Numbered from the stretch's first letter, positions 35,994 through 43,351 are shown. The stretch is DNA of 64,000 nt from Acidimicrobiia bacterium (GCA_022821685.1 JAJEDD010000027.1:1403-65402), one strand, 5' to 3'. The notes: generated by a model not told the origin, from the sequence alone. Numbers and translations: made by a program.

Positions 35994-36089
35994 GACAATC
36001 TGTACAAGAACCCTCCTGTGAATCTGTACAAGAACCACCCTGCGATTCTGTACAAGAACTACCCCGACAATCTGTACAAGAACCACCCA
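35994..36089. repeat. 4 x 24-bp perfect-period tandem array
   Basis: The units are gacaatctgtacaagaaccctcct, gtgaatctgtacaagaaccaccct, gcgattctgtacaagaactacccc and gacaatctgtacaagaaccaccca. The invariant core is tctgtacaagaac, with palindromic TGTACA. Confidence 0.95.
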
Positions 36090-36128
36090 GCGAACTTCCG
36101 CTTTGTCTCCAATGGTGCGGCAAGGGCC

Positions 36129-36262
36129 TAGAGGCCGAGCGAATAGGTGAGCGAATCCGGTTCATACGGGCGAGGCCGTGGCCCGAGCGGCCGTGAGCGC
36201 AGCGAACAAGAGCGGGAAAGACAACCTTGCGACGCGACGGGCTCTCACCTATTTGCGCTCGC
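36129..36262 (-). repeat. dispersed intergenic repeat, short variant
   Basis: tagaggccgagcgaataggtgagcgaatccggttcatacgggcgaggccgtggccc..gtgagcgcagcgaacaagagcgggaaag.. Confidence 0.85.
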
Positions 36263-36284
36263 TCTTACGGGATCAGCGATGCGT

Positions 36285-37616
36285 TCAGGCCCATAGCACT
36301 GATAGCGGTGCCGACCAGATTCGGCCCCTACGCGCATCATCGAGGGGACGGGGCCTGCGACGGCCCGTGTGCAGCAGTACGCCGCCGGTGAAGCTCTCCC
36401 CGAGCAGTTCTCTCATCCAGAAGAGGTGGCGGGCTTCGCTGCGCCCGCCGTGCACGCCCACCTTCACCTCCACCGCCACGACGCCATTGACTCCTCCGTC
36501 GAGCACGAAGTCGACCTCGCGGTCGTTGCGACGCAGATGCGCGAGCCGGTACCCGGCTGCCGATGCCGAAGCCTGGACTCGCAGCTGGGCCGCTACGAAC
36601 GTCTCCAACAGCCGACCGCGCAGATCCGCGTTGGCGCAGATGGCAGCCGCGTCGGTGTTCCAGGCAGCGGCCAACAGTCCGGCGTCGACCAACAGACGCT
36701 TGGGAGCGCGCCGCAGATGGCTGATCCTGTTGGTGTGATACGACGGGGCGTCGGCCACCAGATAGGTGCGCGACAACAGGGTCAGATACGCATCCGCAGT
36801 GTTGCGGGAGATGCCGACCTCGTCGCAGAGCCGCTGCAGCGGCACCACGCCGGCCGAATGGAGGGCGTAGCAGGCGAAGAACTCGGCCAGCTTGGAACGG
36901 TCATGGCGCCCGATCAGGCCATCGACGTTGATCGTGCCGTCGATGCGGCTGCGCAGCCGCGCTCTGCGGGCCTCCGGATCCCCCTCGTCCATCGTGGCGG
37001 GATACCCGCTCTGCAAGGCCAGGTCGATGTAGTCGTTGACGGAAAGGTCAGTCTCGTCGGTCTCCAAGTCGAGGCCCTCGAACAGTCGCCGAATAAGCGA
37101 CACCGATGCTGTGCCGCGCCGTTCGGCGACGCTGAATGGGAACATGTCGATTACTTCGCTGCGTCCCGTGAGCGGCATCTGCTCACGGTCGGCGCCGCGC
37201 ACCGACCCGGCGATGATGAACTGGCCAGGCAACGCCGAAGAGTCGACATGGGCCTTCACCGCCCACAGCACCTCGGGTGCCTCCTGCCATTCGTCGATCA
37301 GCAGAGGCGCAGGTTGGCCGAGCAGCACCGAGCCCGGATCCTCGCGGACAGCCGCAGCGGTGTGAGGATCCTGCATGACCAGCACCGCCCCTGCCTGCTG
37401 CAGAGCAGTGGTGGTCTTGCCCACGCCGCGGGGTCCGCGCAACTCGACCGCAGCCGAACGCGACAACGCCTGTTCCAATTGCACATCGGCCAGCCTTGAG
37501 ATGTAGGGCTCGCCGCCCCCCGGCGCGGCCGAGGTGAGCGCGGGCAGCGCGCTCTGCAACCTCACCGCGCGGTCACCCGCGGTCACTCGAGTTCCCTCCG
37601 CAGGCACAATCCCCAT
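36285..37616 (-). CDS. AAA-ATPase (AAA_14-type) with DUF4143 and a C-terminal PD-(D/E)xK-like module, paralogue 2
   Basis: GPRGVGKTT, LLIDEWQ and EVDFVLDGG...VAVEVKVG. It is colinear with paralogue 1 over its full length. Confidence 0.8.
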   Translation of the reverse strand: MGIVPAEGTRVTAGDRAVRLQSALPALTSAAPGGGEPYISRLADVQLEQALSRSAAVELRGPRGVGKTTTALQQAGAVLVMQDPHTAAAVREDPGSVLLGQPAPLLIDEWQEAPEVLWAVKAHVDSSALPGQFIIAGSVRGADREQMPLTGRSEVIDMFPFSVAERRGTASVSLIRRLFEGLDLETDETDLSVNDYIDLALQSGYPATMDEGDPEARRARLRSRIDGTINVDGLIGRHDRSKLAEFFACYALHSAGVVPLQRLCDEVGISRNTADAYLTLLSRTYLVADAPSYHTNRISHLRRAPKRLLVDAGLLAAAWNTDAAAICANADLRGRLLETFVAAQLRVQASASAAGYRLAHLRRNDREVDFVLDGGVNGVVAVEVKVGVHGGRSEARHLFWMRELLGESFTGGVLLHTGRRRPRPLDDARRGRIWSAPLSVLWA

Positions 37617-37663
37617 TGCCGATCCTCTGATCAGCCCGATGGCCGCTCATGCCAATATTCTAC

Positions 37664-37757
37664 AGCTTGCGCGTTCTGAAGGCTCCAACTTGAGTATTTT
37701 GAAGGCTCTAACTTGCGCGTTCTGAAGATCGTTACTTGCGCGTTTTGAAGGCTCGCC
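37664..37757. repeat. 4-unit ~23-bp tandem array upstream of ATPase paralogue 2
   Basis: The units are agcttgcgcgttctgaaggctcc, aacttgagtattttgaaggctct, aacttgcgcgttctgaagatcgtt and acttgcgcgttttgaaggctcgcc. A TAGAAT -10-like hexamer (37657-37662, minus strand) lies between the array and the start codon. Confidence 0.85.
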
Positions 37758-37800
37758 TTGATGGTGCTAGCCAAGGCTGGACACGGGCGGGCGATGGGGT

Positions 37801-39258
37801 CTACTGATCGGCGTGCTGCTCTAGGAGGCGGTTTATGGCGGCGCCGTCGGCTTTGCCTTTGGTGGCTCGCATGACTTGGCCGGTGAGGAAGCCGGCCAGC
37901 TTCTTGCGCTCGGTTTCGTCGCCGGCGCGGTAGCGGTCCCAGGCGTCGGGGTTGTCGGCGATGACCTCCTCGAGGACCGCGGCCAGGTCGTCGCCGGCCA
38001 TGGCCTCGAAGCCCCGGCGCCGGGCGATCTCGTCGGGGGCACCGCCCGCTTCGGCCATCTCGGCCAGCACCTGCTTGGCCTGGGTGGCGGTGAGCTGTCC
38101 CGCCGTCTCCATGGCGACCAGGGCGGCCAGACCGTCGGGGGTGACGCGCGACCAATTGTCGGTGGCCAGGTCGTTCACCACCCGGGTGGCGGTCACCGCC
38201 GGGTCGGCTCCGGCCGCGACAGCGGCCCGCACCAGCCGGTCCTGGTTCCGCTCCACCAGCACGGCGGCATCCGCGGCTCCCACCCCGCCCACGGCGATGA
38301 GTTCGGCCCGACGGGCGGCGGGCAGCGGTGGCAGCGCGGCATCGATAGCCGCGACCGTGTCGGCCTCTGGAGCCAGCGGCACCAGGTCGGGATCCTGGAA
38401 GTAGCGGTAGTCCTCCGCGTCCTCCTTGGAGCGGCCCGGCGTGGTGCGCCCCCGCGCCTCGTCCCAGTGGCGGGTCTCCTGGCGGGGCCGTTCACCGCTG
38501 GTCCACAGCTCCACATGGCGCTGGGCCTCGTAGACGATGGCCCGGCCGAGGGACCGCAGCGAACTCAGGTTCTTGATCTCGCAGCGGGTGCGGAGCTCGT
38601 CGGCGCCGGCGGGGCGGACCGACACGTTGGCGTCCACCCGCATCGAGCCCTCCTCCATCCGGGCGTCGGACACGCCGACGGCCAGCAGCACGGCCCGCAG
38701 CTCTCGCACATACGACCGGGCCTGCTCGGCGGTGCGGATGTCGGGGCGGCTGACGATCTCCACCAGCGGAACCCCGGCCCGGTTGTAGTCGACCAGCGCA
38801 TAGTCGGCGTCGTGGATGCGCCCGCCGCCGCCGATGTGGGTGGTCTTGCCGGTGTCCTCCTCGATGTGGGCCCGCTCGATGCCGACGGTGTGGCCGTCAA
38901 CCAGCTCGAGGCGGCCGTCGATGCTGGTGGGCTGGTCGTACTGGGAGATCTGGTAGTCCTTGGGCATGTCGGGGTAGAAGTAGTTCTTGCGGGCGAACAC
39001 CGCCCCCTGCACCTCGCATCCCAGCGCCCGGCCCAGGCGCATGGCGAAGCTAACCGCGGTGGCGTTGGGTACCGGCAGCGAGCCCGGCAGGCCCAGACAC
39101 ACCGGACACACGTTGGTGTTGGGCTCGTCGCCGAAGCGGTTGGCGCAGCCGCAGAACAGCTTGGTGGCCGTGCTCAGCTCCACATGGACCTCCAGGCCCA
39201 CCACCAGCTCCCAGCCCTCGGCCAGCGCCTGCTCCCGGCCCGTCGCAGCCGGGCTCAT
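37801..39258 (-). CDS. gatB: Asp/Glu-tRNA(Asn/Gln) amidotransferase subunit B
   Basis: Trimmed to ATG 39258. It contains WELVVGLEVHVELSTATKLFCGCANRFGDEPNTNVCPVCLGLPGSLP. Confidence 0.97.
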   Translation of the reverse strand: MSPAATGREQALAEGWELVVGLEVHVELSTATKLFCGCANRFGDEPNTNVCPVCLGLPGSLPVPNATAVSFAMRLGRALGCEVQGAVFARKNYFYPDMPKDYQISQYDQPTSIDGRLELVDGHTVGIERAHIEEDTGKTTHIGGGGRIHDADYALVDYNRAGVPLVEIVSRPDIRTAEQARSYVRELRAVLLAVGVSDARMEEGSMRVDANVSVRPAGADELRTRCEIKNLSSLRSLGRAIVYEAQRHVELWTSGERPRQETRHWDEARGRTTPGRSKEDAEDYRYFQDPDLVPLAPEADTVAAIDAALPPLPAARRAELIAVGGVGAADAAVLVERNQDRLVRAAVAAGADPAVTATRVVNDLATDNWSRVTPDGLAALVAMETAGQLTATQAKQVLAEMAEAGGAPDEIARRRGFEAMAGDDLAAVLEEVIADNPDAWDRYRAGDETERKKLAGFLTGQVMRATKGKADGAAINRLLEQHADQ

Positions 39259-39314
39259 CGGGCACCTCCGCCAGATGGCGCAGCCTGCGTCCGGCCGGGA
39301 GCAGGCCCGCTCAT
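39255..39314 (-). other. relay mini-ORF 2 (19 codons, [19 protein letters not shown])
   Basis: Its ATG overlaps the stop of mini-ORF 1 (ATGA), and its TGA overlaps the gatB ATG (ATGA). Its C-terminus copies the GatA C-terminus APSGGGAR. Confidence 0.4.
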
Positions 39315-39385
39315 GAGGCACCTCCGCCAGCGGCTGTCGTGCCACCCTGGGAGTGCTGCCGACGGCCCGCGGCAGCCGGGCTCAT
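39311..39385 (-). other. relay mini-ORF 1 (24 codons, [24 protein letters not shown])
   Basis: Its ATG overlaps the gatA TGA (ATGA). Its first 5 residues copy the GatB N-terminus MSPAA. Confidence 0.4.
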
Positions 39386-40857
39386 CGGGCACCTCCGCCA
39401 GATGGCGCGGCCTGCTCCAGCACAGCCGCGGCCCGCAGCAGTATCGGCTCCGACAGGGCCGGACCCATGAGCTGCACCCCCACCGGGAGGCCGTCGTCGC
39501 CGCTGCCGAAGGGCACCGACACTGCCGGATGGCCGGTCAGGTTCGCCGGGATCGTGCACACGTCGTTCAGGTACATCAGCAGCGGGTCGGCGGTTTTTGC
39601 CCCCAGCTCGAACGCGGTGGTCGGCGTGGTGGGGCCCAGCAGAACGTCGACATCGGCGTAGGCCGCGGCGAACTCCCGCCGCATCAGCGTGCGCACCCGC
39701 AGCGCCTTGCCGTAGAAGGCGTCGTAGTAGCCCGCCGACAGCGCGTAGGTGCCCAGCATGATCCGGCGCTTGACCTCGGCCCCGAAACCGGCGGTGCGGG
39801 TGTTGACGTTCATCTCGGCGGCGTTGGCCGCATCGACCCGCAGCCCGTAGCGCACACCGTCGTAGCGGGCCAGATTGCTCGACGCCTCGGCCGGCGCGAT
39901 CAGGTAGTACGCCGACAGGCCCAGCACCGCCGACGGCGCCGACACCACCGAGATCGACGCGCCCGCGGCCTCCAGGGCGGCCGCGGCGGTGTCGACCCTG
40001 GCGATGACGTCGGCCGCCACACCCTCTACCGCCGAACCGGCCGCACCCTCCACCCTTGTGCTGCCGGCGCACAGCTCGGCCAGCACCCCGACCCGCAGGC
40101 CGTCCACGCCCCGCTCCAGGCTGGCGGTGACAAGCTCGCGGGGGCTGTCTATCGAGGTGGAGTCGAGCGGGTCGTGGCCCGAGATGGCCTCGTAACAGGC
40201 TGCCGCGTCGGCGACGGTGGCCGCGATGGGGCCGATCTGGTCGAGCGACGAGGCGAAGGCCACCAGCCCGTAGCGCGACACCCGACCGTAGGTGGGCTTG
40301 AGGCCGACCACGCCGCACAGCGCGGCGGGCTGGCGAATCGACCCGCCGGTGTCGGACCCCAGCGCCAGGGGCGCGAATCGGGCCGCCACCGCCGCAGCCG
40401 AGCCGCCGCTGGAGCCTCCCGGCACCCGGCTGGTGTCGTGGGGATTGCGGGTGGGACCGAAGGCGGAGTTCTCGGTGGAGGAGCCCATGGCAAACTCGTC
40501 GAGATTGGTCTTTCCCACCACGACCGCGCCGGCGGCGCGAAGCCGCTGAACCACGGTGGCGTCGTAGGGCGGATGCCAGCCCTCGAGCATCCGCGACGAG
40601 CAGGTGGTGGGAACGCCCCGGGTGCAGAGGTTGTCCTTGAGCGCCACGGGCACGCCGGCCAGCGGCCCGACCGGCTCGCCCCGAGCCAGCGCCGAGTCGA
40701 TCCTGGCGGCATCGGCGCGGGCCTCGGCGGCCAGCACCAGGTTGAAGGCACCGATCTCGCCGTCTCGTTCGGCGATGCGGTCCAGATGCTCCTCCACGAC
40801 GGCCGCGGCGCTGCGTTCCCCAGATTTGACCGCAGCCGCAAGCGCAAGGGCGCTCAC
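39382..40857 (-). CDS. gatA: Asp/Glu-tRNA(Asn/Gln) amidotransferase subunit A
   Basis: [24 protein letters not shown] and the amidase signature [16 protein letters not shown] start at 40857. Confidence 0.97.
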
Positions 40858-41090
40858 GTCGCCGTCCCTTGTGTCAGCGGCAACTCGAACCGGCCGCCGG
40901 CGAGCGACCTTGCCGTCTCGGGGCTAAGAGGCCGAGCGAATAGGCGAGCGATTCCGGCCCATACGGGCGAGGCCGTGGCCCGAGCGGCCCGTGAGCGCAG
41001 CGAACAAGAGCGGGAATGACCCCGCTGCGACGCGAGGGGCTTGCACCTACCCGCGCACGCTCTAGGCAACCGGGCTGTCCGACGGCTCAC
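40854..41090 (-). other. 78-codon relay ORF spanning the repeat element between gatC and gatA
   Basis: Listed in the ORF track. Its GTG (41090-41088) overlaps the gatC TGA (41089-41087), and its TGA (40856-40854) overlaps the gatA GTG (40857-40855). Confidence 0.4.
40921..41060 (-). repeat. dispersed intergenic repeat, short variant, full length (reference copy)
   Basis: gggctaagaggccgagcgaataggcgagcgattccggcccatacgggcgaggccgtggcccgagcggcccgtgagcgcagcgaacaagagcgggaatgaccccgctgcgacgcgaggggcttgcacctacccgcgcacgc. Confidence 0.9.
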
Positions 41091-41422
41091 GGTGCCTCGC
41101 CCAGGATGGGCGGCACCCGGAACTGGCCGCTGTCGACCGACGGCGCCTGGGCCAGCACCTCGTCGCGCTCCAGCGACGCCCGCACCTCGTCGGCGCGCAT
41201 CACGTTGACGAGTGGATGGGGATGCGATGTCGGCTCGATGTCGGTCACGTCGAGCGCCTCGACATCGGCGGCGTGGTCGAGCACCGCCGAGAGCTGCGCA
41301 GCCAGCTCGTCGAGTTCCTCGTCGCGGAAGCGCAGACGGGCCAGCCGGGCCACATGGGCCGCCTCTGCGCGGGTTATCCGGCCGGACACGTCGGAAGGAT
41401 AGGCCGCTCGCTCTAGCAGCAA
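41087..41422 (-). CDS. gatC: Asp/Glu-tRNA(Asn/Gln) amidotransferase subunit C
   Basis: ITRAEAAHVARLARLRFRDEELDELAAQLSAVLDHA...L. The start is uncertain: TTG 41422 from the track, or GTG 41389 giving MSGRITRAE... Confidence 0.85.
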   Translation of the reverse strand: MLLERAAYPSDVSGRITRAEAAHVARLARLRFRDEELDELAAQLSAVLDHAADVEALDVTDIEPTSHPHPLVNVMRADEVRASLERDEVLAQAPSVDSGQFRVPPILGEAP

Positions 41423-41540
41423 GCGCGGATTGACGGTGGGGTCTCGCGCCGCAGCGGGTCTTTCCCGCTCTTGTTCGCTGCGCTCACGGGCCGCCCAAAC
41501 CCCAGCGACACAGCCGACGGCCTCGCACGCTCGGCCTCAG
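41423..41540 (+). repeat. dispersed intergenic repeat, long variant with an internal deletion
   Basis: ..gcagcgggtctttcccgctcttgttcgctgcgctcacgggccgcccaaaccccagcgacacagccgacggcctcgcacgctcggcctca. The kinase stop codon (41537-41539) lies in its right end. Confidence 0.8.
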
Positions 41541-43351
41541 GAGTCGGAGTCCTCGCTCTCGGGTTCGAGGTCCTCGGCTTCGTCTGCTGGGGGCTCAGGC
41601 TCGGGTGGCGGCACGGGGCCCAGCGAGACCAGTACTCGCACCGTGCTGCCTATCGGCACCGCCGAGCCGCTGGCCGGGCGGAAGCCGATCACGCTTCCCT
41701 CGGCCACGTCGTCCGAGAACTCCAGCACGACCCGCGGCGCCAGCCCTGTGTCGTCCAGCGCGTCGGCGGCGTCCCCCGGCTCCAGGCTCTCGGGCACCGC
41801 GGGAACCGTCCGATCAGCCGGGCCGTCCGACACCAGCAGCTTGACCTCGCGGCCCGGCTCCAGCTCGTAGACGCCCTCAGCGACGTCGAGGCCGACCACG
41901 TTCCCAGACGGCACCACTTCATCGTGGACCGGCGTCGTGCCGCCCAGACCCAAACCGGCGGCGTCGAGCTCCGCGGCGGCGTCGTTCACCGTCATGCCGT
42001 ACAGCCCGTCGAGATCGGCGAGCGGCACCAGCGGCTCGCCCAGCGAGACGAACACGTCCAGCGTCGCACCTTCGGCCAGCGTGGCGCCGGCCGCGGGCTC
42101 GGTGCCGACGATCTCGCCCCGCTCGGTGCCCGCGGCGCGAACCAGGATCTCGTTGGCCTCCCAACCCATGTCGGCCGCAGCCGACACCGCCGCCTCACCG
42201 GTGTGGCCCGCGAGCTCGGGAACGGTGGGATCGGACTCGCCGAGCCAAACCCAGACCCCGCCCGCGGCGGCGCCCGCCACCAGCATGGTGGCCAGCGCCA
42301 GCCCCGGCCAGCGTCGGCGAAGCACGTCGTCGTGGGGGATGGCCGAACGCTCCGACACGGTGGGGCCGACCTGCTCGAAGGCCTCGGTGCTGTCGGCCGG
42401 GGGCGGACCCTCGTCGCTGGGCGGGGCCTTTGCGACAGCCAGCGGGAGCGGGTCGGGGCGCGGCAGCAGCGACGCCACCCGCAGCAGTTCCGATGCCAGC
42501 TCGGAGGCGGTCAGCCGTCCGATGGGGTCGGCCGCGATGGCGCGCTCCAGCACGGCTTGGAGCGGACCGAGGGCGGTGATGGGAATCGGGTCCGAGCCAC
42601 CGACGTCAACCGTCAGCTCTCGGGCGCCGGTGACCGCCTCGCACAGGACCAGGGCCAAGTCGTGAACGTCCTGGGCCTGCTCGATCCGGGAGTGGCTCAG
42701 CGCCCCGCCACCGGGATCGGCGGCATCACGGCTAGCCGGGTCGGCGCCCTCGGGGCCATCGCGCAACTGGGGGCCGGCATCTCGCGCCACCGCGGGATCA
42801 TCCCCGCTGTGGTGTGCCGCGCTCGCGGGCTGCTCCTCCCCGAGGGCCACCGCCAGACCGAGGTCGGAGATGTAGGGCCTGGAGCTGGAGTCGAACAGGA
42901 TGCTGGCAGGCGTGAGGCCGAGATGGGCCCGACCGTCGCGGTGGACGTTCACCAGTGCTCGTGCAGCCTCCAGCCCGACCATGAGCGCCTGCGACGGAGT
43001 GAGCCGATATCCCTCCCGCAGCACCGCGGCCAAGCTGCCGCCGGTGAGGTACTCCGTCACCGCGTAGGGCTGCGGCTCGAGGCCCCAGTCGTACACCGGC
43101 AGCACCCGAGGATGGCTCAGCGCGGCGGTCGCACGCATCTCGTCGGCGAAGCGCTCAGCGAAGCCGGCCCGCTCAGCGGCGTCGGCCCGCAGGATCTTGA
43201 GCGCCACCCGCCGACGCAGCGCGAGATCCTCGGCCACGTAGACGCGTGCGTTCGATCCCTCGCCCACGAACTCCAGCAGCCGGTAGCGGCCACCGAAGGC
43301 CCGGCTGGCGTCCTGGCTGGCGATCACCGTCGCCACGGTACCGCCCGACAC
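41537..43351 (-). CDS. PASTA-domain Ser/Thr-kinase-like protein, predicted pseudokinase
   Basis: GEGSNARVY and VALK are present. However, the catalytic loop reads HLGLTPASIL instead of HRDxKPxN, DFG is DLG, and APE is absent. It has one TM segment and three PASTA-like repeats. Confidence 0.8.
   Translation of the reverse strand: MSGGTVATVIASQDASRAFGGRYRLLEFVGEGSNARVYVAEDLALRRRVALKILRADAAERAGFAERFADEMRATAALSHPRVLPVYDWGLEPQPYAVTEYLTGGSLAAVLREGYRLTPSQALMVGLEAARALVNVHRDGRAHLGLTPASILFDSSSRPYISDLGLAVALGEEQPASAAHHSGDDPAVARDAGPQLRDGPEGADPASRDAADPGGGALSHSRIEQAQDVHDLALVLCEAVTGARELTVDVGGSDPIPITALGPLQAVLERAIAADPIGRLTASELASELLRVASLLPRPDPLPLAVAKAPPSDEGPPPADSTEAFEQVGPTVSERSAIPHDDVLRRRWPGLALATMLVAGAAAGGVWVWLGESDPTVPELAGHTGEAAVSAAADMGWEANEILVRAAGTERGEIVGTEPAAGATLAEGATLDVFVSLGEPLVPLADLDGLYGMTVNDAAAELDAAGLGLGGTTPVHDEVVPSGNVVGLDVAEGVYELEPGREVKLLVSDGPADRTVPAVPESLEPGDAADALDDTGLAPRVVLEFSDDVAEGSVIGFRPASGSAVPIGSTVRVLVSLGPVPPPEPEPPADEAEDLEPESEDSDS

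Follow-up and report, generated by a model that had tools for sequence, protein, structure and literature searches.

GatCAB is an essential heterotrimeric amidotransferase whose genes are normally joined stop to start. In a 64,000-nt stretch of DNA from an Acidimicrobiia bacterium (GCA_022821685.1 JAJEDD010000027.1:1403-65402; hereafter the window), gatC, gatA, and gatB follow one another on the minus strand, with 229 nt of inserted DNA between gatC and gatA and 123 nt between gatA and gatB. The first gap contains a repeat resembling a miniature inverted-repeat transposable element (MITE) and is bridged by a 78-codon open reading frame (ORF78), while the second holds two mini-ORFs of 24 and 19 codons (Table 1). 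The original prediction had read the operon as gatC -GTGA- 78 codons -GTGA- gatA -ATGA- 24 codons -ATGA- 19 codons -ATGA- gatB, and a stop/start walker found all five 4-nt overlaps to be exact, including the GTGA at both ends of ORF78 and the coordinates of that frame (41090..40854). ORF78 had also been said to run through a 140-bp repeat copy; the frame is indeed open through the whole copy, and the size of the repeat was corrected to a core of 135 nt (41062-40928).

Table 1. Features of the gatCAB operon in the window, in order of transcription; positions are counted from the first letter of the window.
Feature	Position	Strand	Remarks
gatC	41087..41389	-	100 codons; stop TGA 41089-41087 shared with the GTG of ORF78; GatC 85-95% identical in congeners
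ORF78 (relay ORF)	40854..41090	-	GTGA to GTGA; stop TGA 40856-40854
5' spacer remnant	41066..41086	-	GCCGTCGGACAGCCCGGTTGC; part of an older junction-derived spacer; homologues are unit 1 of G008 and, in the closest relative G005, the 26-nt spacer
5' flanking trinucleotide CTA	41063..41065	-	one copy of a putative TNA-type target-site duplication, imperfect (CTA vs. TTA)
MITE-like core	40928..41062	-	135 nt, GAGCGTGCGCGG...GCTCGGCCTC; subfamily GGTAGGTGCAAG
3' flanking trinucleotide TTA	40925..40927	-	second copy of the putative TNA duplication
3' spacer remnant	40858..40924	-	end of unit 1 and whole of unit 2 (..GGCCGGTTCGAGTTGCCGCTGACACAAGGGACGGCGAC); contains AAGGGA
gatA	39382..40857	-	491 codons; GTG start 40857-40855 shared with the stop of ORF78; stop 39384-39382 shared with the next ATG
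24-codon mini-ORF	39311..39385	-	ATGA at both ends; duplicated gatA/gatB junction (repeat family D8)
19-codon mini-ORF	39255..39314	-	ATGA at both ends; second duplicated gatA/gatB junction unit
gatB	37801..39258	-	ATG 39258-39256 shared with the stop of the 19-codon mini-ORF

The 3' end of gatC reads ...GCACCG TGA, corresponding to ...GGCGAGGCACCG TGA, so that the G preceding the stop creates the GTG of ORF78 (41090-41088). The Shine-Dalgarno motif of the ancestral gatA start, GAGG, lies within the last gatC codons (CTGGGCGAGGCACCG), and this gatC tail was conserved in every genome examined from the genus, Candidatus Aldehydirespirator (Acidimicrobiales). The start of gatA itself was confirmed by homology, as relatives with a direct overlap begin GatA at the same GTGAC/GTGAG, and in the window it is preceded at 9-10 nt by a weak Shine-Dalgarno-like AAGGGA compared to the stronger GGAGGAGG or GAGG of congeners. 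The two GTGA overlaps of ORF78 both descend by copying from the ancestral gatC/gatA overlap and are thus no coincidence.

Of the three frames across the 229-nt gap, that of ORF78 contains no internal stop; one of the others is interrupted by a TGA at offset 214, the other by three TAGs. Arithmetic from the genome composition gives a random 78-codon stretch about a 20% chance of being open at 69% GC. Taken as a single case, ORF78 is unusual and not statistically decisive. Its intact frame, with a good inherited Shine-Dalgarno motif and start codon, might be taken to encode a functional small protein. This is argued against because the codon-usage score of ORF78 was -0.23 per codon compared to +0.31 for gatA; in addition, no periodicity in third-position GC content was found in ORF78, a Pfam search with it gave no match, the MITE supplies 46 of its 78 codons in an arbitrary phase, and the frame is absent from the closest relative (G005), so that a protein-coding function is close to refuted.

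The spacer flanking the MITE-like element preserves a record of the junction itself. Mini-ORF peptides of the genus resemble GatA at their start (V-T/S-..) and GatC at their end (..LGEAP followed by the stop), and therefore the units that encode them are tandem duplications of the gatC-gatA junction. In the window, unit 1 has lost its internal GTGA through decay to GTCG, and the homologues of unit 2 are the 46-nt units of G010, G008, and L061. After in silico excision of the MITE and one TNA trinucleotide, the gatC-gatA gap of the window aligned over its whole length with that of G008, a two-unit spacer; the start-to-start spans are 95 nt after excision and 98 nt in G008, both of the form 3n-1. 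What excision leaves is a relay ORF of 32 codons (95 nt = 3x32-1), to which the MITE adds 46 codons to give 78. From these alignments a historical reconstruction is well supported in which an ancestral gatC stop and gatA start would have overlapped as GTGA and a tandem duplication of the junction would have produced about 95 nt in two units, each with a GatA head and a GatC tail. Decay of the internal GTGA would then have left a 32-codon ORF running from the orphaned old gatA start to the TGA overlapping the actual gatA start, and the 135-nt MITE would finally have inserted at a TNA inside this ORF, adding its 46 codons in a phase free of stops in its subfamily. In G005 the 26-nt spacer places the overlapping GTG in the gatA frame and has the look of a deletion derivative.

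A comparison of the gatC-gatA junction across relatives, as the original prediction had proposed, showed that end-to-end overlaps were kept in all 40 distinct junction sequences of the genus through many different inserts, with an unbroken chain in 14/14 direct GTGA overlaps and in 26/26 junctions of the relay type. The latter contain either one to four mini-ORFs (9, 16, 17, 20 or 21 codons) or fused ORFs (33, 42, 54 or 78 codons). Inserts ranged from 22 to 229 nt and junction units from zero to four copies, with start-to-start distances of 47, 50, 59 or 62 nt; the MITE is present as a single copy at the window junction and was absent from the gatC-gatA junctions of all other congeners examined. 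In most Acidimicrobiales, gatC and gatA are joined by an NTGA overlap or by an overlapping NTG in frame with gatA. Three outgroup inserts without an obvious junction origin also kept the chain, through ORFs of 45 (L074), 31 (L077), and 54 codons (L105). The chain was broken at nine gatC-gatA junctions, all in distant taxa and mostly where gatC ends in TAG or TAA. In contrast to Aldehydirespirator, the sponge-associated Acidimicrobiaceae metagenome-assembled genome L068 (JAPPJC010000080.1) has a gatC ending in TAG followed by a 215-nt AT-rich insert that holds an approximately 40-nt direct repeat and no relay.

The gatA-gatB junction, whose ancestral state is NTGA, repeated this pattern. Eight distinct relay junctions were identified in the genus, with 24+19 (window), 24 (G005), 19, 17, 12, 5, 5, and 131 codons, and the sole break was caused by a 1.67-kb low-GC cassette in G012. 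The longest relay (L161, in G023) consists of six tandem 66-nt units in which the internal GTGs are in frame because the unit is a multiple of three, leaving a single 131-codon ORF that ends on the GTGA of gatB. The G012 cassette, which lies between gatA and gatB in L187 (G012:C1:1794050-1798400), appears by eye to contain two ORFs; DNA-methyltransferase-like motifs (SPPY, DPFLGSGT) in one of them suggest a restriction-modification cassette. No publication describing the junction-duplication pattern in this lineage was found; the one paper naming the genus, as far as its accessible text goes, concerns sponge symbiosis.

The 135-nt repeat belongs to a large family. A hidden Markov model built from 140 full-length copies was used in an nhmmer search of the 3.19-Mb, 69% GC genome (47 contigs, 96% complete) and returned 424 matches, of which about 200 were full length, the main length classes being 135 nt and 150 nt. 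Nearly all copies lie between genes, in co-directional, divergent, and convergent gaps. The consensus ends form imperfect inverted repeats with 21 of 30 positions matching (GAGGGCGCGCAAATAGGTGAG vs. GAGGCCGAGCGAATAGGCGAG), and a TNA trinucleotide (TAA, TTA, TGA, and others) lies on both sides of most copies, the pair being often but not always identical. A metagenome scan for strain-level relatives recovered no empty site with a single TNA for the gatC-gatA copy, the best match being 85% identical. The family was found in nearly all species of the genus, with hundreds of first-look candidates per genome, and other genera of the order are essentially without it, two of 16 giving one marginal match each. 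Regarding an autonomous partner, 20 pairs of inverted ends lying 0.6-3.5 kb apart were found in the one genome searched, and the 10 that were inspected hold ordinary genes and no transposase, the translations having been judged by eye.

Copies of the element lay in the same orientation as the neighboring genes 51 times and in the opposite orientation 49 times, and there was no sign of selection for copies open on the sense strand in operon gaps, with 0.98 vs. 1.08 open frames per copy in the forward and 0.80 vs. 0.76 in the reverse direction. The likening of this repeat to the interspersed repetitive units of mycobacteria (MIRUs) in the original prediction hence did not hold; the repeat is a dispersed MITE-like element, and the relay property is not a trait of its family. 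Adding the 3-nt flank repeat makes both length classes divisible by three, at 135+3=138 nt (92 copies; 46 codons for the gatC-gatA core and one TNA) and 150+3=153 nt (45 copies), such that their insertion never shifts a reading frame, which could be due to chance as only two classes are involved. One copy (G000 C9:10457-10591) sits exactly at the TGA stop of a gene and has duplicated this TGA as its flank repeat (cTTGA-MITE-TGAGTG), so that the TNA target can evidently be a stop codon at a gene junction.

The presence of a high-copy repeat raises the question of whether the gatC-gatA copy was misplaced in a metagenome-assembled contig, considering the 47-contig assembly and the more than 400 repeat matches in the genome. 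Such an artefact is very improbable, as the copy is set in unique sequence on both sides with its own TNA flanks, differs from every other copy (at most 98.5% identity), and is bordered by sequence that aligns with the orthologous spacers of relatives.

The element may alternatively act mainly as RNA, for instance as a processing or stability hairpin or as an attenuator setting the gatC:gatAB ratio, in which case the ORF would be incidental. The 143-nt consensus RNA is predicted to fold into a long imperfect hairpin of -65 kcal/mol and the 287-nt gatC-gatA intercistronic region to reach -142 kcal/mol. In addition, gatC is flanked by two inverted copies of the MITE, one just upstream of the gene (41405-41536) and one in the gap (40928-41062), whose arms at 41456-41494 and 40984-41022 are 97% complementary over 39 nt at a distance of 433 nt (pair I14) and could pair across the whole gatC message if the copies are co-transcribed. 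Against this strong predicted structure stand the lack of any Rfam match in a scan of 36000-42000 at E<=1, the lack of any promoter, terminator or terminator-like tail in a scan of 39100-41700, the absence of the MITE from the corresponding junction of the other congeners examined, and the occurrence of the family in every intergenic context without a preferred orientation. A primary role as an RNA element is accordingly considered improbable.

The most likely reading of the locus, held with moderate confidence from the sequence comparisons, is that ORF78 is a pass-through frame for translational coupling whose peptide has no function of its own. As ORF78 inherits the complete ancestral gatA initiation region, it should initiate wherever gatA once did. 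Ribosomes finishing gatC would reinitiate on the overlapping GTG, served by the inherited GAGG 7-10 nt upstream, and their passage through the insert would melt the MITE hairpin; termination at the TGA overlapping the gatA GTG would then lead to reinitiation at gatA, and the same hand-over would proceed through the 24- and 19-codon ORFs to gatB. The act of translating ORF78 would matter instead of the peptide, and the GatCAB subunits would remain translationally coupled despite the 229 + 123 nt of inserted DNA. The weak AAGGGA before gatA, compared to the stronger motifs of congeners, fits a dependence on coupling without proving it.

The chain may also be a neutral by-product, in which duplications are biased toward in-phase joins, the MITE and its target duplication add up to a multiple of three by chance, GC-rich DNA is poor in stops, and gatA uses its own ribosome-binding site, making translation of ORF78 irrelevant. 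This is a possible account, considered doubtful, and a number of observations weigh in its favor and against the relay. Independent initiation of gatA could occur from the Shine-Dalgarno-like AAGGGA, and a 78-codon frame is open by chance at the rate given above. At a 4-nt overlap the two frames differ by one base, so that a duplication between sites of equal codon phase has a length of 3n-1, which is the very condition for a relay. When microhomology matches of 4-10 nt were counted across ancestral-type junctions as a null, the frame-breaking class (3n+1) was rare, at 7-22% of pairs for gatC-gatA and 10-24% for gatA-gatB, and the relay class reached up to 40% at gatC-gatA and 50-80% at gatA-gatB; this null alone gives about 80-90% relay-compatible or in-frame lengths. 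Fresh junction duplicates are, moreover, open by descent. The 26 relay species all have the G of the first GTGA, at a synonymous site of gatC, but other proline codons seldom have C either, and the test was not significant (P~0.1). Unit length modulo 3 was largely withdrawn as evidence for selection, the microhomology null predicting most of it.

Several findings are less easily reconciled with neutrality and still favor constraint. No chain was broken among the 40 distinct junctions of the genus, although the units have diverged strongly and the apparently related single-unit gaps of 43, 46, and 55 nt have changed in length by 3 or 9 nt, both multiples of three. Long fused ORFs of 54, 78, and 131 codons have stayed open, and the relay was kept by the three outgroup inserts that are not junction duplicates. 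The MITE at gatC-gatA is also in a phase in which only 13% of copies would be open. Together, the evidence for selection on the chain is suggestive. A conserved chain alone is no proof of selection, because microhomology-mediated duplication across a junction with a -1 frame offset largely predicts frame-closing lengths, and this caution applies to all such claims.

Being no duplication, the MITE provides a test that escapes the bias in duplication length. As its insertion always keeps the frame, the outcome turns on whether a copy is open in the phase that it enters. In the orientation and phase found at gatC-gatA, an open frame occurs in only 13-15% of same-class copies, most being closed because GGTGAG gives an in-phase TGA. 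The gatC-gatA subfamily carries GGTGCAAG and lacks this closing TGA, and the three most similar copies elsewhere (95.6-98.5% identical) are likewise open in this phase. The sharing of this feature with the nearest subfamily copies indicates that the openness of the gatC-gatA element was inherited and not locally repaired, which again weighs against the relay interpretation. So does the behavior of the other insertions: 13 MITE-containing gaps displayed a complete chain after in silico excision, and in the real sequence seven of these keep the chain and six have it broken, in a family showing neither orientation bias nor sense-strand openness. For the 12 gaps that could be scored, seven kept chains (and five broken) compare with 4.76 expected (P(>=7)=0.08); the strict walker used here counts C9:10457 as broken, a TGA followed directly by GTG not being accepted. 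The claim that insertions into coupled junctions survive only when they restore a relay is consequently not upheld, the data showing a trend in its direction that is not significant. Among all co-directional gaps holding a MITE copy, 117 of 126 have no stop/start chain.

A broader interpretation, that the dominant MITE of the genus has been shaped for life in translated intercistronic frames and that operon spacers form a translated, evolvable layer, was considered and appears unlikely. In its support can be cited the lengths in multiples of three, the TNA target that is often a stop codon, and open phases that differ by subfamily. If true, the MITE together with the junction minisatellites would form this layer, with about 200 relay chains in a 3.2-Mb genome, in which copy number and insert content could tune the number of ribosomes reaching the next gene.

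Chains of this kind were counted genome-wide using rough home-made gene calls, and 216 complete chains with at least one mini-ORF were found among 1311 co-directional gaps of 20-600 nt, compared to about 88 in controls in which the gap was shifted by +/-1 and +/-2 nt. Mononucleotide shuffles of the gaps were rejected as a null for chains as they preserve gap length and hence phase. Gap lengths were skewed to 3n+1 in co-directional gaps only (481/377/348). Many chains consist of tandem mini-ORFs of equal length (12+12, 13+13, 24+24, 25+25), so that junction duplication is pervasive in the genome. The excess of chains speaks for the relay but can reflect this origin of the spacers instead of selection. 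A second MITE-containing junction (C22:23503-23733) likewise has a 229-nt gap with a 78-codon GTGA-to-GTGA ORF that is reduced to 32 codons by in silico excision. That the two gaps are one mobile cassette was ruled out by their unrelated flanks; the second is an independent case and its equal length is coincidental.

The closest known system is that of the MIRUs, short repeats between the genes of operons that often form tandem arrays, with copy numbers differing from one relative to another (Supply et al., 1997, as summarized in PMC12548453). The MIRU small ORF overlaps the neighboring stop and start by 4 nt, and the preserved coupling is thought to make the insertion harmless (PMC12548453). 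The gatCAB junctions resemble this arrangement in the -4 nt overlaps at both ends of ORF78 (GTGA) and at all three gatA-gatB joins (ATGA), as well as in tandem units of about 40-100 bp whose copy number varies between relatives, a likeness that is true of the junction-derived units and not of the 135-nt repeat. The MIRU-like parts of the gap are thus the junction-derived units flanking the MITE. Unlike MIRUs, the tandem units are copies of the local junction (GatA head and GatC tail) and not one dispersed sequence family lying along the genes at many operon junctions, while the 135-nt repeat, with its inverted ends and TNA flanks, is found in either orientation in every intergenic context and brings no ORF property with it. 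The host also belongs to the Acidimicrobiia and not to Mycobacterium, the two being compared by architecture. In MIRU terms, the units here are locally made, and the element that is dispersed is an ordinary MITE which landed in frame by chance.

The Rickettsia palindromic elements are bacterial MITEs that insert in frame. The gatC-gatA element is similar in being a short, palindromic, non-autonomous sequence that adds whole codons to a translated frame without stopping it. It differs in that the frame is an intercistronic relay ORF, presumably without a functional product, and not a protein gene, and in that most copies of the family lie in untranslated spacers, such that in-frame tolerance is not family-wide. 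According to the accessible portions of PMC10666635 and PMC6728339, genes coupled by termination-reinitiation must overlap or lie very close together, and such coupling is frequent in heteromeric complexes. The same sources, within the text accessible, and PMC12548453 describe NTGA/TGATG coupling and the "ribosome delivery" by upstream open reading frames, with which the gatCAB operon shares the 4-nt overlaps, the heteromeric complex, and a productless short ORF that would deliver ribosomes. The coupling proposed for the window differs in being chained through three intermediate ORFs, one of which has 78 codons and crosses a transposable element, and in being known here from sequence.

The window thus presents a coupled gatC-gatA junction that has taken up over 200 nt of duplicated and foreign DNA with its series of hand-overs still unbroken. 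If the relay is functional, the logic of the MIRUs would extend from mycobacteria to uncultured Acidimicrobiia, and from dedicated repeats to local junction copies and a MITE, and the intercistronic spacers of high-GC operons should be annotated and modeled as translated.

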